A program made the position numbers and the translations under genes. A stretch of 35,626 nt of DNA from a virus (Duplodnaviria > Caudoviricetes). The notes under the pieces are model-generated. The model searched no databases and was not told the DNA's origin. It was given only the letters and a program-made list of their open reading frames with translations. This document shows positions 1,238-33,111 of the stretch, piece after piece. The stretch covers positions 1 to 35,626 of the IMG/VR virus record IMGVR_UViG_3300021375_000088. One strand, given 5' to 3'. How positions within the stretch are numbered: the first letter of the stretch is position 1; every line of letters begins with the position of its first letter.

Positions 1238-1449
1238 TCGTGATCGTATTGTTTCATTACAATATTAAAACTAATATTGTGGTGTGCGTCATGGTTTTCC
1301 ATAAGTTCTTCAAGAACATTCATTAACTTTTTAATGTTCATACCATCATTGCTTTCATAAGTAGCCAAAACTTGATCTGTCATTTTCTTATCAGTTTTTT
1401 CATGGTACTTATTACCTTTTATTTCTACTTTGTATCTGTCTATGTACAT
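1234..1449 (-). CDS. Hypothetical early protein (71 aa)
   Basis: ORF with strong leader AACAGAAAGGGAAAACAATG. Confidence 0.8.
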   Translation of the reverse strand: MYIDRYKVEIKGNKYHEKTDKKMTDQVLATYESNDGMNIKKLMNVLEELMENHDAHHNISFNIVMKQYDHD

Positions 1450-1480
1450 TGTTTTCCCTTTCTGTTTGTTGTTAGTGAAA

Positions 1481-1504
1481 GTATGGAGATAAAAACATCC
1501 ATAC
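1481..1504 (-). ncRNA. Intergenic stem-loop, candidate antisense (anti-RBS) element
   Basis: 7-bp stem GTATGGA/TCCATAC with 10-nt loop; minus-strand RNA is complementary to the erf RBS (33073-33089). Confidence 0.45.
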
Positions 1505-1537
1505 CAATACCAAATAACCTAAAACTATATAGATCAT

Positions 1538-1771
1538 TTAGATTTTTTTAGCTATGTAATCAAAAATTGGATCCTTTTGACCAGACGCATAACTAATTCT
1601 TTTTTGATATAAAACCACAGTATTATTTTTTGCATTACGCATAAATAAATTTGCTGTATCTCTTACATCATTATTATAAAACCTATCTTTTGCTAAGTAG
1701 CCTTTGTGATAAGTTATGGTTTCGTTAGATTGAGCCGTTTGTAACCATGTTTCGTAGTTGTTTATTGTCAT
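1538..1771 (-). CDS. Hypothetical early protein (77 aa, MTINNYETWL...)
   Basis: Start moved to 1771 on the basis of SD AGAGGA; YHKGYLAKDR and LYQKR blocks. Confidence 0.8.
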   Translation of the reverse strand: MTINNYETWLQTAQSNETITYHKGYLAKDRFYNNDVRDTANLFMRNAKNNTVVLYQKRISYASGQKDPIFDYIAKKI

Positions 1772-1910
1772 TGTTTTTATCCTCTGTTTTTTTATTGTTA
1801 TAATTTCTAACAATCATTTTAATTGCTAGACCATTTTCATCTTTAAGAGTATTGAATAATATTTTTGTCAATTCCCTTACAGATAAATTTTGTTGTAGTT
1901 GTTTATTCAT
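1725..1910 (-). CDS. Hypothetical protein (MNKQLQQN...)
   Basis: ATG overlaps the end of the upstream gene, as expected for translational coupling. Confidence 0.6.
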   Translation of the reverse strand: MNKQLQQNLSVRELTKILFNTLKDENGLAIKMIVRNYNNKKTEDKNNDNKQLRNMVTNGSI

Positions 1911-2067
1911 ACCAAACTTCATTTGTTGGATAATAAACTTTTATTGCACCACCTTCTTTTGTTATGCAATCATCATTAGAGCAATAATAATATCCTAATC
2001 CTTCTTCAATGGTACAATTTTCATCCCATTCAAGATTACTTTTACATTCACAACATTTATATTTCAT
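1903..2067 (-). CDS. Small zinc-finger protein (54 aa, MKYKCCECKS...YCSNDDC)
   Basis: Manual translation; CxxC and CxxxxC; strong GAAAGGG leader. Confidence 0.8.
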   Translation of the reverse strand: MKYKCCECKSNLEWDENCTIEEGLGYYYCSNDDCITKEGGAIKVYYPTNEVWYE

Positions 2068-2088
2068 TTTATTTTCCCTTTCTGTTTT

Positions 2089-2196
2089 TTATATTATTAA
2101 TAATGCTAAACCCAAAATAATTATAGATACAAAAATGACGCACCACATAACTGCTTTGGTATATTTTCTATGTATTGCTTTACCCATTATAATCAT
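2089..2196 (-). CDS. Small membrane peptide (35 aa)
   Basis: MIIMGKAIHRKYTKAVMWCVIFVSIIILGLALLII; SD AGAGG. Confidence 0.65.
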   Translation of the reverse strand: MIIMGKAIHRKYTKAVMWCVIFVSIIILGLALLII

Positions 2197-2299
2197 ATTT
2201 TTTAACCTCTGTTTTCTTGTTGGTTTTTTTTGATTTTAAAAACTCGTAAACTATTGATATTAAACCATATAATAATAAAACTTTTATTGTCATATCCAT
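2180..2299 (-). CDS. Small N-anchored membrane peptide (39 aa)
   Basis: MDMTIKVLLLYGLISIVYEFLKSKK...; leader AACAGAAAGGA. Confidence 0.65.
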   Translation of the reverse strand: MDMTIKVLLLYGLISIVYEFLKSKKTNKKTEVKKYDYNG

Positions 2300-2301
2300 T
2301 T

Positions 2302-2481
2302 TTATTTATCCTTTCTGTTTGCTTCATTAATTATATCATCTGGTAAAGGTACTATATCATAATCATAATGTATTTTAAGATCATGTTGATTTAGATCTAT
2401 TTCTTTATTTATTTTTGCCAAATAATCGTTGAACTTTTTTATTGTTTTATTTAGTTTATCGCAGCTACTATCATCATTCAT
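2302..2481 (-). CDS. Hypothetical protein (59 aa, MNDDSSCDKL...)
   Basis: Manual translation; TAATG coupling to the upstream gene. Confidence 0.7.
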   Translation of the reverse strand: MNDDSSCDKLNKTIKKFNDYLAKINKEIDLNQHDLKIHYDYDIVPLPDDIINEANRKDK

Positions 2482-2729
2482 TAAACAACCCCCAATTTTT
2501 GCAATGTTTTAAGTTCTTGATCTGTTATTTCTTGACTTGAATAAACGCTTATTGCATTAAGCATTTGATTATCCCAATATACACCCTCATTAAGTTTATT
2601 TTTTTTCTTTAAACTCCAAAACTGTTTACAATATTTATAATCAGTTGTTTTATTATGAAATATATATTTATCACTATGCTGATAATCTCCTATTTGCATA
2701 TCAAATGTTACTAATATATTTTTACTCAT
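2481..2729 (-). CDS. Hypothetical early protein (82 aa)
   Basis: ORF track; SD GAGGA. Confidence 0.8.
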   Translation of the reverse strand: MSKNILVTFDMQIGDYQHSDKYIFHNKTTDYKYCKQFWSLKKKNKLNEGVYWDNQMLNAISVYSSQEITDQELKTLQKLGVV

Positions 2730-2957
2730 TTATTCCTCGCTTTCTTTCCATTTTTTAAAGTTAATAAAATCATCTGATAATCTATCTATATGCTCGTATA
2801 TTTCTGAACCCTCATAATATTGAAAGGGTTCCCAAGCATTATTTTGACAATAATCATTTACTTTTTTTTCTGACCATTTATCAAAATTTTTTGGCAATTC
2901 TTTAGATAAAAAATGGCTGCTTGCTAACATTAAACTTTCTTTTTCTGTTGGTGTCAT
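2730..2957 (-). CDS. Hypothetical early protein (75 aa)
   Basis: ORF track; leader ACAGAAAGCGAG. Confidence 0.8.
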   Translation of the reverse strand: MTPTEKESLMLASSHFLSKELPKNFDKWSEKKVNDYCQNNAWEPFQYYEGSEIYEHIDRLSDDFINFKKWKESEE

Positions 2958-2958
2958 G

Positions 2959-3108
2959 TTATTTACTCGCTTTCTGTTGTTTATATTGTTTTTTGTTTTT
3001 AGCTTTAGAATTTAAAATGCTGCAATATTCCTGAATATAATACTCATGTTGATATTTATTTTTAATAATTCTATTGATTGCATTAATTCTTTTATCTTTC
3101 CAATTCAT
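2959..3108 (-). CDS. Hypothetical basic protein (49 aa, MNWKDKRINAINR...)
   Basis: Manual translation; exactly fills the gap between neighbours. Confidence 0.7.
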   Translation of the reverse strand: MNWKDKRINAINRIIKNKYQHEYYIQEYCSILNSKAKNKKQYKQQKASK

Positions 3109-3110
3109 AA

Positions 3111-3398
3111 TTAATAAGCTTGTATTATTAATCTTTCAGTGTCTGGTATTTCAATTACTGTTGTATGGTTTCTTAAATCTTCAAGACTTTTAATATCTCT
3201 ATAATTGTCTTGTACTTTTTTTAAGCTGTCATACTCATCAAAATCACATCTGATTGCAATTGGATCAAATTCTAATTCTTGATCGCAATCTTGTTCGTAT
3301 TGCTCAAAATGTTTAAACAATGCTTTAGTTCCCTCGTAGCTAAAACCATGTTCAATCATCTCATTTGTAAAAGTGTGTTCTGTTATTGTGTCTTTCAT
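3111..3398 (-). CDS. Acidic hypothetical protein, possible DNA mimic
   Basis: 23 D/E versus 10 K/R in 95 aa; FSYEG..ALF and DPIAIRCDF blocks; strong leader. Confidence 0.8.
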   Translation of the reverse strand: MKDTITEHTFTNEMIEHGFSYEGTKALFKHFEQYEQDCDQELEFDPIAIRCDFDEYDSLKKVQDNYRDIKSLEDLRNHTTVIEIPDTERLIIQAY

Positions 3399-3416
3399 TT
3401 TGTTTTTTCCTTTCTA

Positions 3417-3590
3417 TTAATAATTATTTTTACACCAATCAACTAGCTTGTTTTTTACTGTGTCAAAATCTAGTTTTTGTTTTATTAGTTTTTTAGCTTG
3501 TTTAACAAAATTGCTATCTTCCATTAAAAAATTTGGTGATATTGATACCTCACCCGATACAAGTAGTATTAGTTTTTCGCCTTTGCTCAT
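3417..3590 (-). CDS. Hypothetical protein (57 aa, MSKGEKLILL...)
   Basis: Manual translation; leader AACTAACAAAGGGGAAAC. Confidence 0.75.
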   Translation of the reverse strand: MSKGEKLILLVSGEVSISPNFLMEDSNFVKQAKKLIKQKLDFDTVKNKLVDWCKNNY

Positions 3591-3611
3591 TTGTTTCCCC
3601 TTTGTTAGTTG

Positions 3612-3830
3612 TTATTTTAAATTTGTTGTTGAAATTTTGCCATCACCAATAATACAATAGCTTTCAACCTCGTAATGATTTTTAAAAACTTTATTGTGTT
3701 CTATAATTGCATCTATCCAATCTTTACAATTTACAGTTAATCTAGTTTTTCTTAAATCATCATGTGTAGCATTTTTATAAATGTATTTTGCAACACTAAT
3801 CAAAAATGTTTTTTTGTTTGTTTTTGTCAT
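3612..3830 (-). CDS. Hypothetical early protein (72 aa)
   Basis: ORF track; leader AACTAACGAAAGGAAAC. Confidence 0.8.
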   Translation of the reverse strand: MTKTNKKTFLISVAKYIYKNATHDDLRKTRLTVNCKDWIDAIIEHNKVFKNHYEVESYCIIGDGKISTTNLK

Positions 3831-3886
3831 AGTTTCCTTTCGTTAGTTGTTTTCTATTTTTATAATTGTTATTGTTTTATTTTTAT

Positions 3887-3904
3887 AGTTGCCAAATTGT
3901 CGCA
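3887..3904 (-). promoter_or_regulatory. Candidate early promoter/operator motif, copy 1
   Basis: AGTTGCCAAATTGTCGCA, 16/18 identical to 5057-5074; intergenic. Confidence 0.6.
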
Positions 3905-3905
3905 T

Positions 3906-3968
3906 CTATTTACCAAATATTAAAGTAATTATTATTGCTAATACTAAAGCTAAATAAAAATATTCCAT
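3906..3968 (-). CDS. 20-aa hydrophobic micro-peptide (MEYFYLALVLAIIITLIFGK)
   Basis: Strong leader AGAAAGGTAAAACAATG, same as that of the adjacent gene. Confidence 0.6.
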   Translation of the reverse strand: MEYFYLALVLAIIITLIFGK

Positions 3969-3991
3969 TGTTTTACCTTTCTATTGTTGCG

Positions 3992-4150
3992 TTAATCTAT
4001 AAAGTTTCTAGCAAAATCTAAAGCAAATAATAAAAAGCAACCAAACGTTAATATAAACCCTAATGATTGCTGACTTGGATCAGTTGCTAAAATAACCATA
4101 CCTAACATTGAGCATGATAAAAGTATTAACCATTTAATTATTGTAAGCAT
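3992..4150 (-). CDS. Two-TM membrane protein (52 aa)
   Basis: MLTIIKWLILLSCSMLGMVILATDPSQQSLGFILTFGCFLLFALDFARNFID; strong leader. Confidence 0.75.
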   Translation of the reverse strand: MLTIIKWLILLSCSMLGMVILATDPSQQSLGFILTFGCFLLFALDFARNFID

Positions 4151-4154
4151 TGTT

Positions 4155-4442
4155 TTACCTTTCTTTATTTAGTTGTTTTATTCCATATTTAGCAGCACAA
4201 TTCACACCACAAAATTTATATTTACCTAAATAATAATAATAACTTTCTCCATCCCATAATTTGTAAGAATAGATTGTATCTCCATTTTTAATATTTAATG
4301 ATGGCATTGAGAAACCATCTACTATTATTTTTTTTTTCATATAACAAATCAAATTGCCTTTATAAGATTCTTTTTGATTTCTTATATCTTTAGTCATTCT
4401 TCTTAATGTTTTATTACAAGTTATACATTTAACTTTTTTCAT
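4155..4442 (-). CDS. Zinc-finger hypothetical protein
   Basis: CITC ... FCGVNC. Confidence 0.8.
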   Translation of the reverse strand: MKKVKCITCNKTLRRMTKDIRNQKESYKGNLICYMKKKIIVDGFSMPSLNIKNGDTIYSYKLWDGESYYYYLGKYKFCGVNCAAKYGIKQLNKER

Positions 4443-4461
4443 AGTTCCCTTTCTTAGTTGT

Positions 4462-4680
4462 TTATTTAATAAATTTAATTTGTTTTTGTGTTAATTTTGT
4501 GGCATGGAAACCAACCGCTTCAAGATCACTTGTAAAAAATTGACAACTATCACACCTTTCAATATGTGGTTTATGATAAGGATCATTTTTTGCAATCAAA
4601 CCTGAACTTTCAACATCTTGAAAATATCCATAACCATCGCAATCTTTACAATTATTTATTTTGTGTTTATATTTTTGCAT
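4462..4680 (-). CDS. DnaJ-type CxxCxGxG zinc-finger protein
   Basis: CKDCDGYG ... CDSC. Confidence 0.75.
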   Translation of the reverse strand: MQKYKHKINNCKDCDGYGYFQDVESSGLIAKNDPYHKPHIERCDSCQFFTSDLEAVGFHATKLTQKQIKFIK

Positions 4681-4683
4681 TGT

Positions 4684-5022
4684 TTACCCTTTCGTTGATT
4701 GAATATAATCTTTTAAAATATAAAAATTAAAAGAATATTTATTGTTTTTATTAAAATTATTCACAAATCTTTGAAATTCAGCTTTAGAACCTTTAAGAGT
4801 ATGAGAAGCACAATCAATTAAATTATGTGATAAATCATCAACATTAAGCCAATCAATATCATTAATTAAGTGTAAATGTTTTTTGTATATAATATGATTT
4901 GACCATTGACCATCTTGATCTTTAGCAATAAAGACAAAATTATTTAGAGGTGAAATTGCATACCAACTGGCATAACAACCATTAAATTTTTTAGATGTTT
5001 TTTTCCAAATTAATTTTTTCAT
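4684..5022 (-). CDS. Hypothetical protein, first gene of the leftward cassette
   Basis: ORF track, ATG at 5022. Confidence 0.7.
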   Translation of the reverse strand: MKKLIWKKTSKKFNGCYASWYAISPLNNFVFIAKDQDGQWSNHIIYKKHLHLINDIDWLNVDDLSHNLIDCASHTLKGSKAEFQRFVNNFNKNNKYSFNFYILKDYIQSTKG

Positions 5023-5056
5023 AAATATCAATTTAACATATTAGTTAATTAATATC

Positions 5057-5074
5057 AGTTGACAAATTGACGCA
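5057..5074 (-). promoter_or_regulatory. Candidate early promoter/operator motif, copy 2
   Basis: AGTTGACAAATTGACGCA; on the minus strand TTGTCA-16-TAATAT upstream of the cassette. Confidence 0.6.
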
Positions 5075-5463
5075 GTTTATAGATTAGAATAGTTATAAAG
5101 TATTATGAATGAGATATATTTATAATTAGTTATAAAGATGGTTCAACCAACTAGACATAAACATTTTTAACTTATGCGATATAACAAACGGATCTAATAC
5201 GCCAAAATATTTTCCGATAAATCAAGGTTATCAAACATTACTATTGATAACGCAAATATATCATTAGTAATATTTACTGCAACTTTTACAGCTTTTTTAA
5301 AAACTGCACCCCCTACTACCCCAAATTTTCTACCTAACTTTTCTTATATATATACATGGGAATTGTAAACAGACACACACAGACACCCTGCACCAGTTAT
5401 ACAAACGCATTACCAAAATTATTTTTTAGTTGTTTTAAAAAGCGAATACACTAGATGTAGTAT
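5075..5463. other. Large non-coding control region between divergent early and late blocks; candidate pac/genome end
   Basis: No credible ORF; direct and inverted repeats; C-rich strand asymmetry. Confidence 0.6.
5448..5463. promoter_or_regulatory. NrdR-box-like palindrome
   Basis: ACACTAGATGTAGTAT versus consensus acaCwAtATaTwGtgt; all core positions match. Confidence 0.4.
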
Positions 5464-5655
5464 ATGGATTATATGAATAGTGATGAATTTGATTGTGTTG
5501 CTTATGTTGATGAAAAAACTAATAATCTAGTAATAAGATTCTTTGGTATACCTAATAAACAAGCTGCTGAACTATTTGCAGATTATGTAATGATGACATT
5601 AGGAGTTGATTACCAATCTATTAACGAGACCCCTCGTTCTAAAATGGTTCATTAA
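5464..5655 (+). CDS. Hypothetical protein
   Basis: ORF directly upstream of terL. Confidence 0.75.
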   Translation: MDYMNSDEFDCVAYVDEKTNNLVIRFFGIPNKQAAELFADYVMMTLGVDYQSINETPRSKMVH

Positions 5656-5658
5656 CAG

Positions 5659-6930
5659 ATGAACATTAAGATCCCTTATACTCCCAGAAAACATCAAAGT
5701 TATCTACATCAACAAATTAACAAACATAGATGGAGTGTGCTGGTTTGTCACAGAAGGTTTGGCAAAACAGTATGTATGATAAACCACTTAATCAAATCAG
5801 CATTAATGTGCAAACATAAGAATCCTAGATTTGCTTATATTGCACCCACCTTTAAACAGGCGAAGTCAATCGCTTGGGATTACATGAAACAGTTTACTGC
5901 AAAAATCCCAGCAACAAAGTTTAATGAAACAGAATTAAGAGTAGATCTGCCGAATGGTGCTAGAATAACATTACTAGGAGCTGAGAACTCTGATGGGTTA
6001 AGAGGTATATACCTGGATGGTTGTGTGATCGATGAATACGCAAACATTGAAGGAAAGTTATTTGCAGAGATAATTAGACCAGCTCTATCTGATCGTAAAG
6101 GTTACTGTGTCTTTATTGGCACACCTGCTGGAATGAACAATAACTTTTATGATCTCTACCAACACGCTAATGGAGCAGAAGATTGGTTTAACTATAAAGC
6201 TAAAGCAAGTGATACAAAGATTGTAGATCCAGAAGAATTAGAAAAAGCAAAAGAAGTTATGGGTGAGAAGAAGTACCTACAAGAATTTGAGTGTGATTGG
6301 ATTGCTAACATTGAAGGTGCGATCTATGGAGATGAAATAGCTAAGTTGGATGATAAGAAGCAACTAGCAAGAGTACCCTACGATCCTACTTTGCCTGTCT
6401 CAACTGCATGGGATCTCGGTGTCGCAGACCACAGTAGTATTATATTCTTTCAACAAAAAGGAACAGCAATACAGATAATAGATTACCATGAAGAACGTGG
6501 TCATGGATTACCACACTATATTCAGTTGCTAAACGAAAAACCATACGTTTACAAAGAACATTATGCACCACACGATATTGAAGTACAAGAATTTGGTAAT
6601 GGCAAAACAAGAAGAGAAATAGCTTATCAGTTAGGAATTAGATTTAAGGTAGTACCGAAGTTACCAGTAGAAGAAGGAATCCACGCAGTAACTATGTTGC
6701 TCAACCGATGTTGGATAGATACAGACCATTGCAAAAGTTTGATAGATGCGTTAAGACATTACCACAGGAAGTACATTGACAAAAATAGAATGTTCAGATC
6801 GAAACCTGTACACGATTGGAGTTCTCATGCTTGTGATGCGATGCGTTACTTAGCAGTTGGTCTACAAGAATTAAATACTAGACAAAATGCTCCACAAAGT
6901 GTAGCAGATAATAACTATAGGATTATTTAA
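5659..6930 (+). CDS. terL: Terminase large subunit
   Basis: Walker A HRRFGKT, Walker B VIDE, GTP coupling motif, RNase H WDLG and SHACDAMRY. Confidence 0.97.
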   Translation: MNIKIPYTPRKHQSYLHQQINKHRWSVLVCHRRFGKTVCMINHLIKSALMCKHKNPRFAYIAPTFKQAKSIAWDYMKQFTAKIPATKFNETELRVDLPNGARITLLGAENSDGLRGIYLDGCVIDEYANIEGKLFAEIIRPALSDRKGYCVFIGTPAGMNNNFYDLYQHANGAEDWFNYKAKASDTKIVDPEELEKAKEVMGEKKYLQEFECDWIANIEGAIYGDEIAKLDDKKQLARVPYDPTLPVSTAWDLGVADHSSIIFFQQKGTAIQIIDYHEERGHGLPHYIQLLNEKPYVYKEHYAPHDIEVQEFGNGKTRREIAYQLGIRFKVVPKLPVEEGIHAVTMLLNRCWIDTDHCKSLIDALRHYHRKYIDKNRMFRSKPVHDWSSHACDAMRYLAVGLQELNTRQNAPQSVADNNYRII

Positions 6931-6932
6931 TT

Positions 6933-7151
6933 ATGGGATCAATATTTAAACCAAAAATACCAGCGTTGCCACCTGTGCAACCTTTACCAGAGCCACCAGA
7001 TACAGAACTATCTGAAGCAGAACAAGCAAAGTTAGACGCAGAGTTTGCTGCTAAAGAACGAAGAAGAAAAGGTAGAAAATCAACAATCAAAACTTCTCCA
7101 TTGATTGCTATGGAAGAAGCAGACGTAGAGAAGAAAACATTACTAGGATAA
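6933..7151 (+). CDS. Small virion-associated protein with Pro-rich N-terminus and KTLLG end
   Basis: Position between terL and portal; C-terminal motif shared with 7341-7892. Confidence 0.7.
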   Translation: MGSIFKPKIPALPPVQPLPEPPDTELSEAEQAKLDAEFAAKERRRKGRKSTIKTSPLIAMEEADVEKKTLLG

Positions 7152-7155
7152 TAAT

Positions 7156-7338
7156 ATGTTAGATAAAATTAAAAAAGTATTTAAAAAAGAAAAATCAGAA
7201 ACTAAATCTGTTAAGAAGAAACCATTGTTTGACTTAGGAAATGAATTAGATTCTGGTGTAGGTATTAATGAAACTAAATCAGAATCAAAAAAAGAAGTTA
7301 CAAGTGAAAACAAATCTTCTTTGACATTTGGAAAATAA
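7156..7338 (+). CDS. Hypothetical protein
   Basis: ORF in operon with SD AGGA. Confidence 0.7.
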   Translation: MLDKIKKVFKKEKSETKSVKKKPLFDLGNELDSGVGINETKSESKKEVTSENKSSLTFGK

Positions 7339-7340
7339 TT

Positions 7341-7892
7341 ATGGGATCTAATGGAGCAAGTGGTGGTGGAAGTGCAGATGCACCAAACACAAAAAGATCA
7401 ACATTATCTACAAAGAACCAACAAAAATTATCAGACAGAAACCAAAAAAATAAAACAGAGTTTGGATATAATAAACCAAAATCTGCTTTAGAAAAAGTTG
7501 GAGACTTTGTAAAAACTGGTGGATTTATAGGAGCTGCTGTTAGAGGAGTAACAAAATCTGTAAGAAGAGGAAGAGTTAATACATCATTAATGGGAACTTC
7601 AGACTATCAAGGATCATCAACAAGAAGTAGTGCAACTAATTCTATGAATGATGGAAGAGGTAATAATAATAATGGCAATCAAGTTGTTCAAGCTCCAACA
7701 GTAAAAGCACCAACATCAATAGAAGTTTCTCAAGTTGCACCAGAAGTTACATCAGAAGAAGCAAGAGCATCAGCAAATGAATTAATTTCAAAAAAAAGAA
7801 GAGGTAGAGGAAGATCTTTAATGATTGCAACATCTCCAGAAGGTGTTAAAGATCAAAGCTTAACCTTAAGTCAAAAAACTTTATTAGGATAA
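7341..7892 (+). CDS. Low-complexity probable virion protein ending KTLLG
   Basis: ORF in operon, directly upstream of portal. Confidence 0.75.
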   Translation: MGSNGASGGGSADAPNTKRSTLSTKNQQKLSDRNQKNKTEFGYNKPKSALEKVGDFVKTGGFIGAAVRGVTKSVRRGRVNTSLMGTSDYQGSSTRSSATNSMNDGRGNNNNGNQVVQAPTVKAPTSIEVSQVAPEVTSEEARASANELISKKRRGRGRSLMIATSPEGVKDQSLTLSQKTLLG

Positions 7893-7893
7893 T

Positions 7894-9522: not shown

Positions 9523-9543
9523 TAAAAAAACAAAAGGATAGAT

Positions 9544-9765
9544 ATGCAAGACGAAAAAGCAGTACAAGCTTATATAAAAAAATTACAAGAAAATTATAAA
9601 CATATTTTTACATCAGATGAAGGTAAGGAAGTTTTATCTGATCTAGAAAAAAGATGTCATTATCATTCTACTACCAATGTTAAAGGTGATAGCCATGAGA
9701 GTGCATATATGGAAGGTCAACGAAGCATCCTTCTATTTATTAAACAAATGCTTCAAACCAAATAA
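9544..9765 (+). CDS. Bbp19-like protein
   Basis: F.S.EGK.VL.DL...C and AY.EGQRS motifs; lies between portal and scaffold. Confidence 0.75.
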   Translation: MQDEKAVQAYIKKLQENYKHIFTSDEGKEVLSDLEKRCHYHSTTNVKGDSHESAYMEGQRSILLFIKQMLQTK

Positions 9766-9776
9766 GGATAACAACT

Positions 9777-10631: not shown

Positions 10632-10806
10632 AGAAGAAATAAGATTAGAAATATTAAGAATGGTATTGGAAAGTGGATCAGAAAAAATAAAATCTGATCC
10701 CTTGCCAAGCTGTGAAAAATATTATACATGGGTTTCTAAGACGAATGAAAATTCGTCTAAGAAAAGTAAGACAATTCGTAAGAACCTTACTGACAACAAG
10801 GAATAG
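10624..10806 (+). CDS. Hypothetical protein
   Basis: ORF coupled to the scaffold gene; 3' part overlaps RNA hairpins. Confidence 0.6.
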   Translation: MNKEEIRLEILRMVLESGSEKIKSDPLPSCEKYYTWVSKTNENSSKKSKTIRKNLTDNKE

Positions 10807-10865
10807 ACTTGTAGTCTAAAAGACTTTAAATCCAAGAGAAGCCAGGTTTTCTGAGAACGTCTCTG
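10733..10865 (+). promoter_or_regulatory. Structured RNA leader upstream of MCP
   Basis: Abutting hairpins with GAAA and GUAA (GNRA) tetraloops plus two further stems. Confidence 0.5.
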
Positions 10866-10906
10866 TTTTGTTTTAACATTAACTTAACAATAATAGGAGA
10901 CATAAT

Positions 10907-25522: not shown

Positions 25523-26547
25523 TGGCATATACTACAATTAATAAACCTTCTGATTATTTTAATACTAAACTTTATACTGGTACAGGAAGTTCTAATTCTG
25601 TAACTGGAGTTGGTTTTCAACCAGATATGACATGGTTTAAACATAGAAATGGAACAAGTGAACATAATATATATGATGCTGTAAGAGGTGCTACTAAAAG
25701 AATTATACCTAATGATAATTCAGCAGAAGGAACTCAATCAAATGGTTTGTCAGCTTTTGGAAGTGATGGCTTTACAGTTGTAGATTCCAATGCAACAAAC
25801 CTTAATAATGGAACATACGCATCATGGAACTGGAAAGCAAATGGTGCAGGTTCAGCTAATACAGATGGTTCTATAAACTCAACTGTTTCAGTAAATCAAA
25901 CAGCAGGTTTTTCAATAGTGAAGTGGACAGGTACACAAAGTTTAGGAACTGTAGGTCATGGATTAAATTCTGTTCCTAAAATGATTATTATTAAAAATAC
26001 ATCAGCTTTAGAAAACTGGATTGTTTATCATAACTCTTTAGGCAATACAAAAAACTTATATCTTGATGCAACTAACACAGAACATACTAGGTCAGATACA
26101 TTTAATAATACTTCTCCAACATCTTCTGTTTTTACAGTTAATACAGCAACAGGTGTTAATAAAACTGGTAGCACTATGATTGCTTACTGCTTCGCAGAGA
26201 AAACTGGTTATAGCCGTTTTTCAAAATATCAAGGTACTTCATCAACAGATGGTGCATTTATTTACACTGGCTTCAAACCCACATTTTTCATGGCGAAATG
26301 TATAGATAATGCTGAAAGTTGGTACATATTTGATAATAAAAGAGAAGGATATAATGTAGAGAACAGAGATTTATATGCTGACAATACTGGTACAGAAGGT
26401 TCAGCAGATTGGTTAGACATTTTATCTAATGGGATAAAATTTCGTTATAATTCTATAGGTCTAAATGGCAGTTCAAATAACTATATCTTCATGGCATTTG
26501 GTCAAAGTTTAGTAGGTTCAAACAACGTACCATGTACAGCAAGATAG
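25522..26547 (+). CDS. Tail-associated beta-rich protein
   Basis: LYTGTG, GVGFQPD..W.K.R, AGFSIVKW, HGL...P.MII.K, YTGFKP repeats. Confidence 0.75.
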   Translation: MAYTTINKPSDYFNTKLYTGTGSSNSVTGVGFQPDMTWFKHRNGTSEHNIYDAVRGATKRIIPNDNSAEGTQSNGLSAFGSDGFTVVDSNATNLNNGTYASWNWKANGAGSANTDGSINSTVSVNQTAGFSIVKWTGTQSLGTVGHGLNSVPKMIIIKNTSALENWIVYHNSLGNTKNLYLDATNTEHTRSDTFNNTSPTSSVFTVNTATGVNKTGSTMIAYCFAEKTGYSRFSKYQGTSSTDGAFIYTGFKPTFFMAKCIDNAESWYIFDNKREGYNVENRDLYADNTGTEGSADWLDILSNGIKFRYNSIGLNGSSNNYIFMAFGQSLVGSNNVPCTAR

Positions 26548-26557
26548 GAAATAAAAT

Positions 26558-27352
26558 ATGACAAAAACAAGAAATTTATCAGACTTACTAGATGCTAATG
26601 GTGATGTTAAATTAGGTAATTTAGATAACGTACCAGCTAGTAATGATGCTAGTGCATTAACTACAGGTACACTACCTATAGCTAGAATAGCTGATGGAGA
26701 TATTACTACTGCTAAACTTTCAGACAGTTCAGTTTCACTTGCTAAACTAACAGCAACAGGAACTAAAGATGCTACAACCTTTTTAAGAGGAGATAATACT
26801 TTTGCAGTAGTTTCATCTGATTTTGTAAAATTAGCTTCTGGTTCTTTTAGTTCAAACAGTTTGTCTTTTGATGGTTATTTTACTTCAGCTTATTCTCATT
26901 ATAAAATAATTATAACTGACGCAATTCCATCAGGTAATAATAATGGTATTGAAATGAGATATAGAATATCAGATTCAGATGTAACAACTTCCGATTATAA
27001 TAATGTTGGACAACATGGTGCTATTAATCTTGGAACAGGAGCAAGTGACGGAACTTCTCATGCTGAAGGTGATAGTAAATTTATATTACAGCAAGGTTAT
27101 GCTGTATCAAATGCAAGTGGTTTGTGTTTGAATGCAGAATTAACAATTTTTAATCCATTAAGCACATCTTTATATAAACATTATCATTATAAAAGTTCTT
27201 GTCATTATAGTTCAGCAACTGGATATTGGGTAACCTCAACTGGTGGTGGTTATTATGACGCTAACACAACTGCTTTAAGTGGATTTACAATTTTAAATTC
27301 AGCAGGAAATATTACATCAGGCAACGTCTATTTATATGGGATAAAAGCATAA
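26558..27352 (+). CDS. Tail fibre-like protein
   Basis: ITTAKL repeats, TTFLRGD, C-terminal YLYGIK. Confidence 0.7.
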   Translation: MTKTRNLSDLLDANGDVKLGNLDNVPASNDASALTTGTLPIARIADGDITTAKLSDSSVSLAKLTATGTKDATTFLRGDNTFAVVSSDFVKLASGSFSSNSLSFDGYFTSAYSHYKIIITDAIPSGNNNGIEMRYRISDSDVTTSDYNNVGQHGAINLGTGASDGTSHAEGDSKFILQQGYAVSNASGLCLNAELTIFNPLSTSLYKHYHYKSSCHYSSATGYWVTSTGGGYYDANTTALSGFTILNSAGNITSGNVYLYGIKA

Positions 27353-27570
27353 TGAAAAAAGTAATTATAAGACCAACTGGTATAGAAGAATTAGATTTAA
27401 CTGCTGAAGAAATTGCACAAAAAGAAACAGATGAAGCAAATGCTTTAGTTCAAAAACAAGAACTAGAACAAGCACAAACAAACGAAGCTAATAAAAAAGC
27501 ATCAGGCAAACAAAAGTTACTAGACTTAGGATTATCCGAAGAAGAAGTTAAAGCACTAATAGGAGTATAG
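27352..27570 (+). CDS. Probable fibre-associated/assembly protein
   Basis: LTAEEIA and KLLDLGLSEEEV; follows the fibre gene. Confidence 0.65.
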   Translation: MKKVIIRPTGIEELDLTAEEIAQKETDEANALVQKQELEQAQTNEANKKASGKQKLLDLGLSEEEVKALIGV

Positions 27571-27572
27571 CT

Positions 27573-27788
27573 ATGAAATTTGTATTAGCTTACACTATCT
27601 GTTCGGCTATAACAGGCTTATGTAATAATACAGCAGTATCAAAAGTAGAATTTAATTCCTGGAGTGATTGCGTTAAAGCAGGTGCAATAGCAACTATTCA
27701 AACTACCAATCAACAGGAAAAAAAATTTAACGAAAAAAAATTATATGTAAGTTATTTTTGTAATGAAATAAAGAGAGATGATGCTTAA
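27573..27788 (+). CDS. Hypothetical Cys-containing protein
   Basis: ORF with SD AGGAG. Confidence 0.75.
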   Translation: MKFVLAYTICSAITGLCNNTAVSKVEFNSWSDCVKAGAIATIQTTNQQEKKFNEKKLYVSYFCNEIKRDDA

Positions 27789-28044
27789 AAAAAAATCATC
27801 ACATAAATCTAACTTAGAAGATCACAATGGTATCAGAATATCATACCATGAAAAAGTTTGTGCAGAAAGAATGAAAACTTTATTTAATAGAATTGATGAA
27901 ATGAAAAAAGATATGAAAGAATTAAAACAAGATATATCTGAAGTAAAAGCAAATATAAATAAAAGTAAGGGTGGTTTGAAAGTTTTATTAGCTGTTGGTA
28001 GTATTGTTGCTGGAGCTATAGGATTTTTTAAATACAATGGCTAA
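27778..28044 (+). CDS. Coiled-coil protein with C-terminal TM helix
   Basis: HEKVCAER, heptads, hydrophobic C-terminus. Confidence 0.75.
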   Translation: MMLKKKSSHKSNLEDHNGIRISYHEKVCAERMKTLFNRIDEMKKDMKELKQDISEVKANINKSKGGLKVLLAVGSIVAGAIGFFKYNG

Positions 28045-28345
28045 TAGAAGAAAAACTGCAGTAGTAGGATTAACATCTGAACTTAAAGCTCAAGCTCGTC
28101 TTGCTGAAGATCCTAATATAATAGTGTTCACTCCTGTGGGTGGTCTTGGTCCAGTAGATATTGTTACTTTAAATATGATAACAGGTAAGTATACTGCTTA
28201 CGATGTTAAATCTAAAAATTATAGAAAAAATAATTCAAAAAATATTCCTGCTGATGGATATAAAAGAAATATTAAAGGAACATTTATATCTAGAGGAGCA
28301 ACTAAAGAACAAAAGAAACTTAACGTAAGGATTATATACGAATGA
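28037..28345 (+). CDS. PD-(D/E)XK nuclease-like protein
   Basis: G..SE, PVDIV, YDVKS motifs. Confidence 0.6.
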   Translation: MANRRKTAVVGLTSELKAQARLAEDPNIIVFTPVGGLGPVDIVTLNMITGKYTAYDVKSKNYRKNNSKNIPADGYKRNIKGTFISRGATKEQKKLNVRIIYE

Positions 28346-28815
28346 AATTATCAAAAAATTTTACACTACAAGAACTAACTAAATCAGATACAGCTATTAG
28401 ATTAGGTATAGCTAATGAGCCTAACTCAGATCAGATTGAAAAATTACAAAACCTTTGCGAGACTTTACTTCAACCTGTTAGAGATAAATTTGGTCCAGTA
28501 ATTATAACGTCTGGATTTCGTAGTGAACAGCTATGTGTTAAGATAGGCAGCTCAATCAATAGCCAACATAGCAAAGCTGAAGCTGTAGATTTTGAAGTAC
28601 CTGGAACTGATAATGCCGATCTTGCTTATTGGATAAAAGATAATATAGAAGGGTGGGATCAAATGATCCTTGAATTTTATACGATTGGTGAACCTTCAAG
28701 TGGATGGGTTCATTGTAGTGTTGCAGATAAACCTAGAAAACAATTCTTGAGAGCTTTTAAAGAAAATGGTAAGACAAAATATAAACCAATACTAGGAGAC
28801 ATAAGATGTGGTTAG
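28342..28815 (+). CDS. Endolysin, peptidase M15A family
   Basis: LSKNFTL.E, ITSGFRS, SQH...EAVD, WVHCS. Confidence 0.92.
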   Translation: MKLSKNFTLQELTKSDTAIRLGIANEPNSDQIEKLQNLCETLLQPVRDKFGPVIITSGFRSEQLCVKIGSSINSQHSKAEAVDFEVPGTDNADLAYWIKDNIEGWDQMILEFYTIGEPSSGWVHCSVADKPRKQFLRAFKENGKTKYKPILGDIRCG

Positions 28816-29183
28816 GTGCAATTAAATTAGCTGTTCAAGCAGGTAGTCATATATATAAAAATAAACAAAAAACCAAAATGCTTATGGCAGACGCACAAAT
28901 GAATCATGCTCAAAAAATGGCTAGTGGTGAAGCAGAGTATCAAGGTAAATTATTAGAAAGTAGAAACTCAGATTGGAAGGATGAATTTATTTTAATTTTA
29001 CTAAGCGTGCCAATCGTAATGTTGGGATTTGCTGTATGGTCAGACAATCCAGAACACATGGAAAAAATGCAGCTCTTCTTTGAATATTTTTCTAACCTAC
29101 CATTTTGGTATCAATCAATTTTTGTGGGTGTCATAGCTAGTGTTTATGGTCTTAAAGCAACAGATTTAATTAAGAGGAAGTAA
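28806..29183 (+). CDS. Holin
   Basis: WKDE motif and two TM helices; adjacent to the endolysin. Confidence 0.7.
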   Translation: MWLGAIKLAVQAGSHIYKNKQKTKMLMADAQMNHAQKMASGEAEYQGKLLESRNSDWKDEFILILLSVPIVMLGFAVWSDNPEHMEKMQLFFEYFSNLPFWYQSIFVGVIASVYGLKATDLIKRK

Positions 29184-29299
29184 TGAGTAATCAAGCACCA
29201 ACAATGTTCGTATCACAATATAGTAAAAAGAAACCTACACTTCTTGCACAGCAAACAGGTAAAAAGAAAAAGAAAAAAAAATATAAAAAGAAAAAGTAA
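29183..29299 (+). CDS. Poly-lysine micro-protein (38 aa)
   Basis: MSNQAPTMFVSQYSKKKPTLLAQQTGKKKKKKKYKKKK; TAATG coupling at both ends. Confidence 0.7.
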   Translation: MSNQAPTMFVSQYSKKKPTLLAQQTGKKKKKKKYKKKK

Positions 29300-29433
29300 T
29301 GGCTAAACAAAAATTTACACACTTTGTACCTAGAGATAAACCTAAAAAAAGACCAGGAGTACATAAGAAAAATCAAAATAAAAATGAGAAGAGACAAAAA
29401 AAACAAACTAGATACAAGGGTCAAGGAAGATGA
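29299..29433 (+). CDS. Basic micro-protein ending YKGQGR (44 aa)
   Basis: Manual translation; coupled at both ends. Confidence 0.75.
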   Translation: MAKQKFTHFVPRDKPKKRPGVHKKNQNKNEKRQKKQTRYKGQGR

Positions 29434-29570
29434 TTGATAAATTTTTTTATAATTTTTTTAGTGCAGTAGATAATATGTTTTCATGGTTAGAAACTTATTC
29501 TGTTAAATTTACTTCATGGTTATGGCAATCAAGAGTTAAACTATTAAGAAAAAAAAGAAAAAGAAAATGA
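29430..29570 (+). CDS. Amphipathic micro-protein with basic tail (46 aa)
   Basis: MIDKFFYNFF...LLRKKRKRK; ATGA overlaps. Confidence 0.7.
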   Translation: MIDKFFYNFFSAVDNMFSWLETYSVKFTSWLWQSRVKLLRKKRKRK

Positions 29571-29731
29571 GAGATCACAAAGTATTAGAAAGTTTTATAA
29601 AGCATACTGAAAAGAAATTAAAAGAAATGAATTTATTTAAGTTTCTTAAAAAGGAAGTAAATCATGGTGCTAATGGTACTAAAGATTATGTAATTAAAAA
29701 AGGTATTAACAAAGGTAAGGTTGCTAAATGA
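29567..29731 (+). CDS. Basic hypothetical protein (54 aa)
   Basis: MRDHKVLESF...KKGINKGKVAK; ATGA overlaps. Confidence 0.7.
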   Translation: MRDHKVLESFIKHTEKKLKEMNLFKFLKKEVNHGANGTKDYVIKKGINKGKVAK

Positions 29732-30093
29732 AAATATCAGAGAACACATCAGTTAGTATGCCTGTAAAAAATATGGTTGCTATTGTTATTGGTGTGGCTA
29801 TGGGTGTGTTTGCTTATACAGAAGTTACTGCTAGACTTACTTCACTTGAAACTTCAAGAGAATTATTTCAAGCTGATCTACTTAAAAAGTCTGAACAAAA
29901 ACCTACTGACCAAGAACAATTTATGCTTTTAGAATCTGTGTTTGCAGATGTTGAAAAATTACAAATAACACAAGAACAAAATATGACGAATAAAGTTAAT
30001 ATACAATTTTTAAAAGATCAATTAGAAAAAGCATTAAAAGATATTGAAGAACTAAAAGATAAGGTAAGAGCCAATGGAACAAGTCATCAGTAG
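29728..30093 (+). CDS. N-terminal TM plus coiled-coil protein
   Basis: Hydrophobic residues ~16-30, then heptads. Confidence 0.8.
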   Translation: MKISENTSVSMPVKNMVAIVIGVAMGVFAYTEVTARLTSLETSRELFQADLLKKSEQKPTDQEQFMLLESVFADVEKLQITQEQNMTNKVNIQFLKDQLEKALKDIEELKDKVRANGTSHQ

Positions 30094-30295
30094 TGTTGTT
30101 GCTTTATGTATGTTTGTAGCAGGTGAATTAACTGAACATCGTATTCAACCAGCTATGTCAGATTGTCTAAAAGGTAAACGTGTTGCTGAACGTACAGCTA
30201 ACGATAATGTAGAATACAAATGTGATAAGGTAAAAGCAGAGTTAGAAAATAATCTTGATGGTAGCAAAGCAATTAAAAAAATAGTAAAAGAATAA
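30074..30295 (+). CDS. Hypothetical protein
   Basis: ORF coupled to neighbours. Confidence 0.75.
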   Translation: MEQVISSVVALCMFVAGELTEHRIQPAMSDCLKGKRVAERTANDNVEYKCDKVKAELENNLDGSKAIKKIVKE

Positions 30296-30297
30296 TT

Positions 30298-30579
30298 ATG
30301 GCTATTAGAAAAACTACTAAAGGTAAAAACGCAAACTACAGACCAACAAAATCTGGAGCTGGTATGACAGCTAAAGGTGTAAAAGCATATAGAAGAGCCA
30401 ATCCAGGAAGTAAATTAAAGACAGCAGTAACAGGTAAAGTTAAAGCAGGATCTAAAGCAGCTAAAAGAAGAAAATCTTATTGTGCAAGATCTCTTGGTCA
30501 ACTTAAAAGATCATCAGCTAAAACAAGAAACGATCCTAACTCAAGAATAAGACAAGCAAGAAGAAGATGGAAGTGTTAA
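30298..30579 (+). CDS. Highly basic protein, DUF6321-like
   Basis: NPGSKLK, RRKSYCAR, C-terminal RWKC. Confidence 0.75.
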   Translation: MAIRKTTKGKNANYRPTKSGAGMTAKGVKAYRRANPGSKLKTAVTGKVKAGSKAAKRRKSYCARSLGQLKRSSAKTRNDPNSRIRQARRRWKC

Positions 30580-30580
30580 T

Positions 30581-30814
30581 ATGAAAAAAAAAGGTTGGAA
30601 AAAACCAAAGGTTCAAACATTAATCTGTGGTTACTGCAAAGAATGTAACAAAGAATTAATGAGTGATAATGGTGGTTGGATAGTAACTGCAAAGAAACAA
30701 TATTTTTGCCATGATGGTAAAGAAGGTTCTTGCTTTGACAACTACTGTGAGTTAAAAGTTAAACAACATAAGGAGCAAAATGAAAAAAGGTTATCACAAA
30801 ACAGCTACTGGTAA
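30581..30814 (+). CDS. Zinc-finger hypothetical protein
   Basis: CGYCKEC ... FCH...CF. Confidence 0.75.
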   Translation: MKKKGWKKPKVQTLICGYCKECNKELMSDNGGWIVTAKKQYFCHDGKEGSCFDNYCELKVKQHKEQNEKRLSQNSYW

Positions 30815-30941
30815 GATCGCAAAGAAGGGTCTTTACTATAATATAAATAAGAAAAAAAAATCTGGTACTTCAAAAAGTAAAGCTAAAAGCACAATCTCTG
30901 CGAAGGCTTACAAAAATATGAAGTCTGGATTTAAAAAGTAA
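30780..30941 (+). CDS. Lys-rich micro-protein (53 aa, MKKGYHKT...KGLYYNIN...)
   Basis: Manual translation; SD AAGGAG. Confidence 0.75.
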   Translation: MKKGYHKTATGKIAKKGLYYNINKKKKSGTSKSKAKSTISAKAYKNMKSGFKK

Positions 30942-31452
30942 TTTTTCTTAACTCTTCAAACTCATCCCAAATAGTATTGCCAGGATTCCAATATCGTTTC
31001 TTCTCTATTTTATTTTTTAGAGAATGTAATACAGTTGTGTGATCCTGGTTAAACACTCTACTCATTGAAGATATGCTTACATTATATTCTTCATGTAAAA
31101 GATTATAGACAATACTTCTTGCTCTAACTACATCTGAAGTTCTACCTTTGCTAAACACATCATGTTTGCTAACAGTATATCTTTCACACACTTTATCTAC
31201 AAGTTTAGAAACAACTTCTATGTTTGCATTCTTATATTTGATACCAACTTTATGTTTAACATTGCTATCTATTATTGGTTTCTTTTGTAGCATTTCTGCT
31301 GCATATAAAAACCCCTCTGAAAACCCTACCTCATATAATCTTTCTTCTTGGTTTGTTAGAAGGTAGAATGCTTTCTTTACTTTATAGATAAAGTGATTCT
31401 GGTTTAAATTTTTAATATGTTTATTGTAATGTTGATTTATATTTATGGTCAT
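30931..31452 (-). CDS. Protein with DnaA C-terminal (domain IV) HTH
   Basis: SKGRT..VV.AR and F.QDHTTVLH; start reassigned to 31452 after SD AGGGGA. Confidence 0.85.
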   Translation of the reverse strand: MTININQHYNKHIKNLNQNHFIYKVKKAFYLLTNQEERLYEVGFSEGFLYAAEMLQKKPIIDSNVKHKVGIKYKNANIEVVSKLVDKVCERYTVSKHDVFSKGRTSDVVRARSIVYNLLHEEYNVSISSMSRVFNQDHTTVLHSLKNKIEKKRYWNPGNTIWDEFEELRKITF

Positions 31453-31499
31453 AGATCCCCTACGTTTTCCTTTCTTTTTTTTCAACTCTTAGTTATTAT

Positions 31500-31667
31500 C
31501 TATTTAAATGATAACAACTGCTCTTGCGTCTTTTCTATTTTCCAAAACAATCTATAAGAATCTTTTTGATACTTATTTGCTTTTTGTTTTGCTTCCAGAT
31601 ACTTCTCGTGTTTCTTCGCTTGAAGATCCTTCAACTTTTGTAGACGCACTTTGATGTTTTCCATCAT
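31500..31667 (-). CDS. Coiled-coil hypothetical protein (55 aa)
   Basis: Manual translation MMENIKVRLQKL...; SD AAGGAG. Confidence 0.7.
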   Translation of the reverse strand: MMENIKVRLQKLKDLQAKKHEKYLEAKQKANKYQKDSYRLFWKIEKTQEQLLSFK

Positions 31668-31827
31668 GCTCCTTTTTCACTTTTGTAGAATCGAATCTTA
31701 AATTATCGATTTTACATTCTACTAACTCACCTCTATTTTGAGTGTTAGTAGCCTTTTGTATATCATCAAAAAATTCAGTCATTTCAAAATGACATTCTCC
31801 ATTGATAATTCTTTTAAATTTTGTCAT
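31573..31827 (-). CDS. Hypothetical protein
   Basis: ORF track; follows the DUF3310 gene. Confidence 0.65.
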   Translation of the reverse strand: MTKFKRIINGECHFEMTEFFDDIQKATNTQNRGELVECKIDNLRFDSTKVKKEHDGKHQSASTKVEGSSSEETREVSGSKTKSK

Positions 31828-31829
31828 AT

Positions 31830-32039
31830 TTATTTGTTTTTTTCAACTTCTTTTTTAATCAAAAAATCTATATACTGTTTGGCTTTTTTAAGATCTTCAA
31901 TACCATTTTTTCTTTTATATCTAGAAATGTATTTAATTACATTGCCTTCACAAAAATCAAATTCATTTTGAATTATAAAGTCAATAGGTTCAATCTTATT
32001 TGCTACGTAATGTTTGGGTTCTTTTATATTATCTGTCAT
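31830..32039 (-). CDS. DUF3310 (SaV-like / T7 gp1.7-related) protein
   Basis: P.HY...IEPIDFI, GNVIKYISR, EDLKKA; start MTDN at 32039. Confidence 0.88.
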   Translation of the reverse strand: MTDNIKEPKHYVANKIEPIDFIIQNEFDFCEGNVIKYISRYKRKNGIEDLKKAKQYIDFLIKKEVEKNK

Positions 32040-32054
32040 ATTAAATCCTTTTTT

Positions 32055-32100
32055 AAGCAAGGTGGGGAAAACGGAAAGGGAAAAAAACCCCACCCTGCTT
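32055..32100 (-). ncRNA. 13-bp stem with 20-nt pyrimidine loop, candidate anti-Shine-Dalgarno RNA
   Basis: Fully paired on the minus strand (one G-U), no U-tract, loop UUUUUUUCCCUUUCCGUUUU. Confidence 0.5.
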
Positions 32101-32116
32101 GATACATTCTAATTAA

Positions 32117-32410
32117 TTAGAAAGTATATTCGTTATTAGCACCATCATTTGCTTTTGCAAAGCTATTATTAGTAGCTTTTCCTGCTCCACTTGGCGTTAA
32201 AATTATTGTCAACTCACCTTCTTTAACATTGCCATCTTGATCTTTAGATGGAAACGCAGCTTGGTTGTACCATTGACCATTAACATTTACTCCAACTGTC
32301 CAGTTTTTGTCTGGATGTTTCATGTTTTTTGGACCAATATAAACTGGAACTTTATCTGCTGGAGATTTCCAATCTGGGTTTTTTACTAGGTTAATGTATA
32401 TTTTATCCAT
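32117..32410 (-). CDS. Probable single-stranded DNA-binding protein
   Basis: Follows erf; beta-rich core with flexible tail ending EYTF. Confidence 0.55.
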   Translation of the reverse strand: MDKIYINLVKNPDWKSPADKVPVYIGPKNMKHPDKNWTVGVNVNGQWYNQAAFPSKDQDGNVKEGELTIILTPSGAGKATNNSFAKANDGANNEYTF

Positions 32411-32438
32411 GTTCTTTACTCCTTAGTTATATCAATCT

Positions 32439-33074
32439 TTATGATTGATTATTTTTTAGTTGAATCTCACGAACACCAGCAGCGTCTGCTACTTGTTTAT
32501 ATGCTCGTAAGTTATTTTTAATTAGATATTGGACTTGCTCTCTATACTTAGATTTAACAGAATTAAACTCTGTTAAACTTTTAGCATTTTTAAGTTCATC
32601 TTTTATCTCTTCCACATTTATACTATCATCAGTATATTGTGGTTCTGCTTCTACAGATGGCTCTGAAGAATTTTGTTTAAATGGTTTTGCATTATAACCA
32701 TCTTCTAAATCCATTCCTGTCTTTAGATTTAATGCGTTTAAGAAAGCATACTTTTTACTGTATGACATAGCTTGACCAGTTCCATATTTATCTAAACCAC
32801 CCATTGCAGTACAACCATCAATTATAATAAAATTACTTGGTTCATCAACGTCAGTTATTTTCATAGTGCAAGTTACGATTACAAACTTATCTGTTATATC
32901 TGTAATGTAATTACAAGTTGGATATAAACCATTTTCTAATAGAGCTGCCATTGCAACTCTTTGAACGTCATCGTGCAATAAAGGATTAAAAGGCATACCT
33001 TTAACTTTACTTGCTTTCTTTACACCACTTGCATGATTACAAGCATTGTATAATTTCTTATGTATGTTTCCCAT
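32439..33074 (-). CDS. erf: ERF-family ssDNA annealing protein
   Basis: G.AMSYSKKYAFL..L.L.TG.D.E signature; start at 33074 with SD GGAGA and 8-nt spacer. Confidence 0.88.
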   Translation of the reverse strand: MGNIHKKLYNACNHASGVKKASKVKGMPFNPLLHDDVQRVAMAALLENGLYPTCNYITDITDKFVIVTCTMKITDVDEPSNFIIIDGCTAMGGLDKYGTGQAMSYSKKYAFLNALNLKTGMDLEDGYNAKPFKQNSSEPSVEAEPQYTDDSINVEEIKDELKNAKSLTEFNSVKSKYREQVQYLIKNNLRAYKQVADAAGVREIQLKNNQS

Positions 33075-33111
33075 GTTTTTATTCTCCATTTTATATATGT
33101 TATTTGTTTCT

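Follow-up and report, generated by a model that had tools for sequence, protein, structure and literature searches.

We analysed the virus record IMGVR_UViG_3300021375_000088 of IMG/VR over its full length of 35,626 nucleotides (nt; the window), which is a whole, circularly permuted phage genome (300-nt direct repeat, spacing 35,230), and found in its recombination operon a conserved and previously undescribed anti-leader RNA hairpin outside the Rfam families, here called H2. An unpaired, near-invariant core in the loop of H2 equals the last bases of the host 16S rRNA, and a class of leaders complementary to H2 is nearly confined to the early genes of these phages. We give about even chances to a reading in which H2 is a conserved anti-Shine-Dalgarno (anti-SD) hairpin that would act in one direction and in trans, by blocking ribosome loading on early genes. 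The original prediction had coupled H2 with a second hairpin, H1, in the early cassette, as the two arms of a reciprocal antisense toggle operating without a repressor. Both hairpins exist as described and both fold (H1, 1481-1504, z -2.9; H2, 32055-32100, z -5.5), and of the two arms only that of H2 stands.

Region 31,000-35,626 of the window shares 71-82% DNA identity, over part or all of its length, with HTVC100P, Greip, HTVC024P, the Skadi phages and HTVC010P, which identifies the window phage, by its sequence, as an HTVC010P-type pelagiphage infecting the ocean bacterium SAR11; its genome layout is likewise that of HTVC010P-type subgroup I. No integrase was seen among the scanned window proteins, and integrase-less subgroup I pelagiphages are lytic according to Du et al. 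(PMC8477408).

Structure and conservation of the H2 hairpin

The hairpin and its immediate setting in the window are as follows.

34038-30931, minus strand: recombination operon carrying H2, with genes for a putative nuclease, Erf, a 97-aa protein, a DUF3310 protein and a DnaA_C helix-turn-helix (HTH) protein
32117..32410, minus strand: likely SSB-like 97-aa gene, immediately preceding H2 at every locus
32055..32100, minus strand: H2, a 13-bp stem with a 20-nt unpaired pyrimidine loop (32068-32087) made of a U-tract, a CCCUUUC core and GUUUU
31830..32039, minus strand: DUF3310 gene that follows H2 directly (true start 32039)

None of 200 shuffled sequences folded as well as H2. To follow the hairpin across relatives we assembled loci from 10 isolates and from four IMG/VR scans, of which three targeted the 97-aa gene family and the fourth an early gene, which gave 269 loci with the 97-aa gene, 263 of them with at least 130 nt of downstream sequence; these loci are not independent. 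In all 263, a 12-bp stem ending in G before the U-tract follows the SSB-like gene, 28-55 nt past its stop, and all 10 isolates carry H2. Across the 32 distinct 12-bp stems, 381 of 384 cells are paired, against 0.68 for mismatched partners, the 3′ arm having been selected for the greatest pairing. These stems hold 58 G-U pairs against a single A-C, and the mRNA strand is therefore the one that folds. An RNAalifold consensus of 17 long-form copies contained 12 pairs, of which none was broken and five showed two-sided changes.

The interior of H2 occurs in four architectures (short, Skadi, Lederberg, and long with an inner stem), and even the inner stem of the long form leaves the core within the apical loop. 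CCUUUC is present in 262 of the 263 loci, where it is unpaired (mean P unpaired 0.96), and GUUU closes the loop in every one. All five SAR11-family 16S genes that were read end in ...CCUCCUUUCU, so that the H2 loop copies the anti-SD tip of the ribosome.

H2 sits between two operon genes, and a promoter or terminator of its own was not found. We also considered whether it is itself an intrinsic terminator and rejected this: an A-run follows the stem on the mRNA strand and GATAC on the other, and the terminator scan did not list it. The Rfam 15 covariance models, RsaE, C4, sar and cuckoo included, gave five window matches at E<=5, none at H1 or H2 and none reaching the gathering score. Part of 31500-33200 is contained in 24 RNA runs, and in four of the four metatranscriptome assemblies that we aligned, contigs cover the SSB-like gene, with listed contig ends at 32035, 32076, 32117 (a loose end entering the 5′ arm) and 32131; because contigs show neither ends, strand nor level, we did not use them in support of H2.

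In long-form copies (for example L009, ~28200-28300), the inner stem is often preceded by AUCAU, complementary to a start codon region, and followed by CUCCC, a further pyrimidine motif. Judged by their sequence, the two motifs could serve to cover the SD together with the AUG, or to address a GGGAG/GGGGG leader class.

Early-gene leaders as predicted H2 partners

The leaders and modules compared here are the following.

1234..5031, minus strand: early cassette of small genes, many of them preceded by GAAAGG/AAAGGG leaders that pair with the final bases of host 16S rRNA
2068..2089, minus strand: leader in front of early gene 2067-1903, the best of the predicted H2 targets (16 bp, net -19.3 kcal/mol)
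1450..1467, minus strand: leader of early gene 1449-1234, of the AGAAAGGGAAAA class (15-bp predicted duplex with the H2 loop, net -17.9 kcal/mol)
5659-30941: late module

In a seeded scan of both strands of the genome, the leaders of genes 2067 and 1449 were the top two sites for H2. The nuclease-gene leader of H2's own operon is a weaker partner in the window (net -10.2) and pairs better in some lineages. We then counted leaders in 11 complete genomes, with open reading frames (ORFs) called by a simple script, and found GAAAGG/AAAGGG in front of 59 of 121 early genes, against 6/70 in H2's operon, 11/64 in the divergent operon and 5/429 among late genes. Late ORFs use GGAG leaders (118/429), and in 395 kb of one partial SAR11 genome only 4 of 373 host genes had the GAAAGG/AAAGGG type. 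There are accordingly two Shine-Dalgarno classes, GAAAGG/AAAGGG for early genes and GGAG for late ones, and the sampled host genes mostly have neither. The median net binding of H2 was -9.7 at early leaders versus -5.6 at late ones, and its best leader was an early one in 9 of the 11 genomes. The claim that H2 addresses early-cassette ribosome-binding sites, including that of gene 1449, thus holds for the conserved structure and for the class-specific complementarity; the regulation that it suggested is a prediction from sequence.

Two temperate relatives were also inspected. In HTVC028P, the terminase genes are not separated by an early cassette, leaders of the H2-matching class are missing on the same strand, and the equivalent gene is not followed by H2. 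Neither H2 nor same-strand leaders of this class occur in a SAR11 prophage that has integrase and XRE homologues. Among 55 early cassettes (L186 and L024 being left out of this and the other 55-genome or 55-cassette sets, namely those for co-evolution, H1 analogues and GGG leaders), fully matching GGG leaders lie nearer the distal cassette end, at a median of 647 versus 1716 nt from it.

Two further candidate targets were rejected. Host shut-off does not fit the SAR11 sample, in which 3 of 373 host leaders bind H2 at <= -12, compared with 31 of 121 early leaders. A 9-bp match at 34123, which would place H2 on the first gene of the divergent operon, was discarded when AACGGA proved to be present whatever the loop variant (compared by eye among the sequences listed).

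Together, these observations are consistent with the following course of events. Early genes would be translated from leaders of a strong class able to pair with the tip of the 16S rRNA. As recombination-operon RNA accumulates, the rigid H2 stem would present a mimic of that tip, with the U-tracts flanking the core matching the A-rich flanks of AGAAAGG(G)AAAA leaders. Pairing would then block ribosome loading, chiefly on the distal, GGG-led early genes, while late and host mRNAs would escape, the outcome being a one-way timer that damps the early genes. Such pairing in vivo, the repression that it would cause, its timing and the form in which H2 would act, as part of the mRNA or as a piece processed from it, are what we infer from sequence. 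The action of H2 is likely Hfq-independent: Hfq was found in none of 41 SAR11-related genomes, many of them incomplete, with positive controls.

Tests of co-evolution and of chance gave a mixed picture. Cognate H2-target pairs beat swapped pairs overall (p 0.012, 55 genomes), and two-C loops coincide with 19 GG and 2 GGG leaders, compared with 33 and 20 for three-C loops (Fisher p 0.023, the sites being non-independent). Several points weigh against regulation in trans. The cognate effect is driven by the Skadi class, and within classes p is 0.11. Shuffled loops of the same composition choose an early leader as their best site in 103 of 150 trials, which means that much of the preference follows from composition; the observed energy is attained by 5 of the 150. 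The loop and the leaders both relate to the 16S tail, and their complementarity could be a by-product of this shared relation. The best H2 site is not early in Greip and Skadi-1; a fully matching AAAGGGA leader occurs in only 36 of 55 cassettes, some of them partial; GG leaders outnumber GGG leaders (148 vs 76); and the co-absence of H2 and the leader class is a pattern of two genomes. A discrete small RNA containing H2, and repression by it, are moreover hypothetical.

Some of these points would suit an element that acts in cis on its own operon and determines the amount of SSB-like mRNA, as a 3′-end stabiliser, an RNase III processing site or a protein-binding site. A protein would then read the pyrimidine loop, and the match to A/G-rich leaders would be coincidental. 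The fixed position of H2 behind one gene, its long GC-rich stem, the preference of shuffled loops, too, for early leaders and the lack of within-class co-variation between H2 and its targets all favour this explanation. We nevertheless hold it to be unlikely, if by no means negligible, since a stabiliser needs no near-invariant unpaired CCUUUC across four architectures, the missing U-tract after the stem on either strand speaks against an intrinsic terminator, and both temperate relatives without the leader class also lack H2 behind the equivalent gene. That H2 pairs mainly with the nuclease leader of its own operon, as feedback between 5′ and 3′ ends with the early leaders secondary, appears distinctly improbable to us. 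Many lineages do have a nuclease leader that belongs to the same class and looks like the complement of the loop, GG nuclease leaders accompany two-C loop variants in four of five cases, and the cognate effect at the class level is strong (p<0.0001, with 36 loci left out); yet within classes it falls to p 0.11, with several starts mis-called, the CC/CCC versus GG/GGG comparison is not significant (Fisher p 0.32), many nuclease leaders lack the motif, and in the window both early leaders bind far better than the nuclease leader. We attach still less weight to H2 as a single-stranded DNA signal, a priming or replication hairpin beside recombination genes. H2 does adjoin the Erf and SSB-like genes, and G-T pairs are tolerated in DNA hairpins too, but its loop is complementary to a leader class and identical to the 16S tail, and it is the mRNA strand that is structured.

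H1 and the claimed arm towards Erf

The other half of the proposed toggle involves these features.

1481..1504, minus strand: H1, a 7-bp stem with a 10-nt loop
1472..1537, minus strand: predicted 21-aa hydrophobic small ORF containing H1, its start coupled to the upstream stop
32439..33119, minus strand: Erf-family single-strand annealing protein (PF04404), conserved start 33119, GGGG-type leader
33072..33089, minus strand: claimed target of H1, made up of Erf codons 11-16 (M-E-N-K-N-M) and distinct from the conserved translation start

H1 had been taken for a non-coding element, and it sits in a 21-codon ORF (1537-1472) with an ATG immediately after the upstream stop and a product that is 86% hydrophobic. 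A search with a degenerate pattern, in which only the WMFL[S/A]PY codons were fixed, returned 18 loci, near-duplicates among them, all 18 with 21 codons and a coupled start. Fourteen of these have neither the H1 stem nor the anti-GGAG; the other four keep both, two being one contig and one matching the window. The length, coupled start and hydrophobicity of the small ORF are thus conserved and the RNA fold is not. Elsewhere, H1 was present in 1 of 16 relatives of the upstream gene having downstream sequence (L093, being truncated, was left out of this count), a perfect-stem scan of the 55 early cassettes found one H1-like hairpin, the window's own, and IMG/VR contained one exact H1 match. A minimum free energy scan of the same cassettes for H1 analogues gave eight unrelated matches and missed H1 itself. 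Within H1, the anti-SD bases CUCC are mostly paired in their own stem (P unpaired 0.22). On this sequence evidence we judge H1 to be an incidental structure inside the predicted gene for a 21-aa membrane peptide, an example of how unannotated small ORFs can be mistaken for hairpin RNAs.

The complementarity that had suggested a target is real: H1 matches minus-strand 33089-33072 over 16 nt, with one bulge. The site is, however, internal coding sequence of Erf and not the recombination-operon ribosome-binding site that had been claimed; the start common to relatives, 33119, lies 30 nt upstream, and the internal motif is shared by 10 of 86 loci, among them the window. The net binding energy of the match, -7.1 kcal/mol, is equalled in 11 of 251 early windows, and the true Erf start binds H1 at no more than -4.3. 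When raw duplex energy is compared instead, 17 of 316 windows equal the claimed site, and across the whole genome the best site of H1 is elsewhere. Short AU-rich complementarities of this kind arise by chance in these genomes at a rate of ~1 window in 20. One contig (L018/L091) has the target without H1, and one other than the window (L017/L092) carries both; an Erf query of the genome contigs gave no match. The prediction that both hairpins co-occur was thus not borne out, with H2 in 263/263 loci and H1 in 1/16, 1/55 and 4/18 (ORF-homologous loci). The two occur independently, and the reciprocal toggle, in which H1 represses Erf and H2 the early genes, is therefore refuted; even with the 16-nt match in the window and the contig with both elements in its favour, it keeps next to no probability.

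Regulators, neighbouring genes and known systems

In agreement with the original prediction, no match to CI/Cro or RNA polymerase families was found among 30 window proteins (Pfam) and 28+17 (PHROGs), the large late proteins being outside the scan. The lack of a repressor does not account for the existence of H2. The hairpin is not a stand-in for a missing repressor, because all 10 isolates carry it, 6 of the 10 together with an extra regulator-like gene, and because the window has two predicted HTH proteins.

30931-31452: DnaA_C HTH protein (E 9e-15)
34951: weak winged-helix/replication-O-like predicted HTH protein

The extra gene is small (74-90 aa), heads the divergent operon (L006:5621-5845, L004:5411-5647, L007, L008, L009 and L010) and has no counterpart in the window, HTVC100P, Greip, HTVC024P and HTVC035P. 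In the GenBank annotation of Skadi-1 it is a 'putative transcriptional regulator', and this label, together with an N-terminus that looks Cro-like, suggests an HTH protein; the proteins of the six isolates had no Pfam or PHROG match. For Skadi-1, host RNA polymerase plus two transcriptional regulators are reported (PMC8477408 and PMC10504331).

The recombination operon begins with one further gene.

33112..34038, minus strand: first gene of the operon, homologues annotated putative nuclease

The 97-aa protein upstream of H2 is likely SSB-like, as its position after Erf, a beta-rich predicted fold of low confidence (pLDDT, the model's own per-residue score, 61) and a DUF736 lead suggest; this lead scored 0.90, from a family carried by only 10% of the members of that cluster, and the model had no Foldseek match. 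Between the nuclease operon and the rightward operon, a short divergent-promoter region (34050-34120) contains TTGACA and TATAAT at a spacing of 15 nt, both on the minus strand.

Several further features were noted. In the lysis region, an 88-aa protein (27778-28044, plus strand) has a weak PHROG label, 'hemolysin' (E 8.5e-07), and is more likely holin-like by context. A conserved intergenic block upstream of a 63-aa gene (5290-5465, plus strand; 49 distinct copies) opens with a G/C run-TATA-CCCC element, which alternates between GGGGG and CCCCC, and continues with TATATATACATGG, CA-repeats and, immediately ahead of the ATG, an invariant motif; several isolate records start or stop near it, and it is likely a genome-end, packaging or origin signal. 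The early cassette holds several hydrophobic small ORFs of 20-35 aa (3968-3906, 2196-2089 and 1537-1472, minus strand), shorter than the usual annotation cut-off, and relatives have others in apparent gaps of the cassette. In L104/L105, the early cassette and the convergent terS meet at a strong GC-rich hairpin of 13 bp, which lies downstream of the gene-1789 homologue and is a probable terminator.

Antisense RNAs that act on phage translation are known from temperate phages, in which c4 of P1/P7 and sar of P22 mask a phage ribosome-binding site and control antirepressor synthesis. H2, by comparison, belongs to a lytic subgroup I, is missing in two temperate relatives and has no Rfam match at E<=5. 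The Cuckoo/CcsR RNAs of Alphaproteobacteria have tandem hairpins with CCUCCUCCC loops carrying an anti-SD-like motif, whereas H2 is one hairpin with CCCUUUC and without an Rfam match. A closer likeness, in how H2 would work, is to the C-rich small RNAs RsaE/RoxS of Firmicutes, in which a single-stranded anti-SD-like CCCCUU, one copy of it in a stem-loop, pairs with AAGGGG SD-like sites of several mRNAs (PMC6158497). Both have a conserved structure exposing an unpaired C/U-rich motif complementary to the SD regions of a defined gene set; H2, known from its sequence, differs in being phage-encoded, in lying between two operon genes, in having a leader class that is nearly phage-private and in lacking an Rfam match.

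RegB of phage T4 is an endoribonuclease that cuts GGAG with S1 as cofactor; it silences early mRNAs by way of their Shine-Dalgarno sequence and spares most of the middle and late ones (PMC3014915). The predicted outcome for H2 is the same, early mRNAs being silenced through the SD, except that the agent would be an RNA loop, not a protein, and that here it is the late genes that use GGAG. We tentatively propose, at somewhat less than even chances, an RNA-only counterpart of T4 RegB, in which a private early SD class pairs with the 16S tip and is then shut off by an mRNA-embedded, Hfq-independent mimic of that tip.

Literature searches found no description of this hairpin. Non-coding elements are unmentioned in the available portions of PMC8477408 and PMC10504331, and the Skadi paper, to the same extent, has no mention of small RNAs, hairpins or intergenic elements. 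The main text of PMC10690425 gave no match to the H2 motif, and its supplements, partly searched, may list H2 as a candidate; PMC12753301, as far as its accessible text goes, concerns other pelagiphage types.

HTVC010P-type phages encode no RNA polymerase, and a hairpin that reads a phage-private class of ribosome-binding sites would supply them with a mechanism for ordering gene expression. This mechanism would operate in a host group in which Hfq was not found and, if the reading of H2 is true, would amount to an RNA-only early-gene shut-off conserved across one of the ocean's most abundant phage groups.

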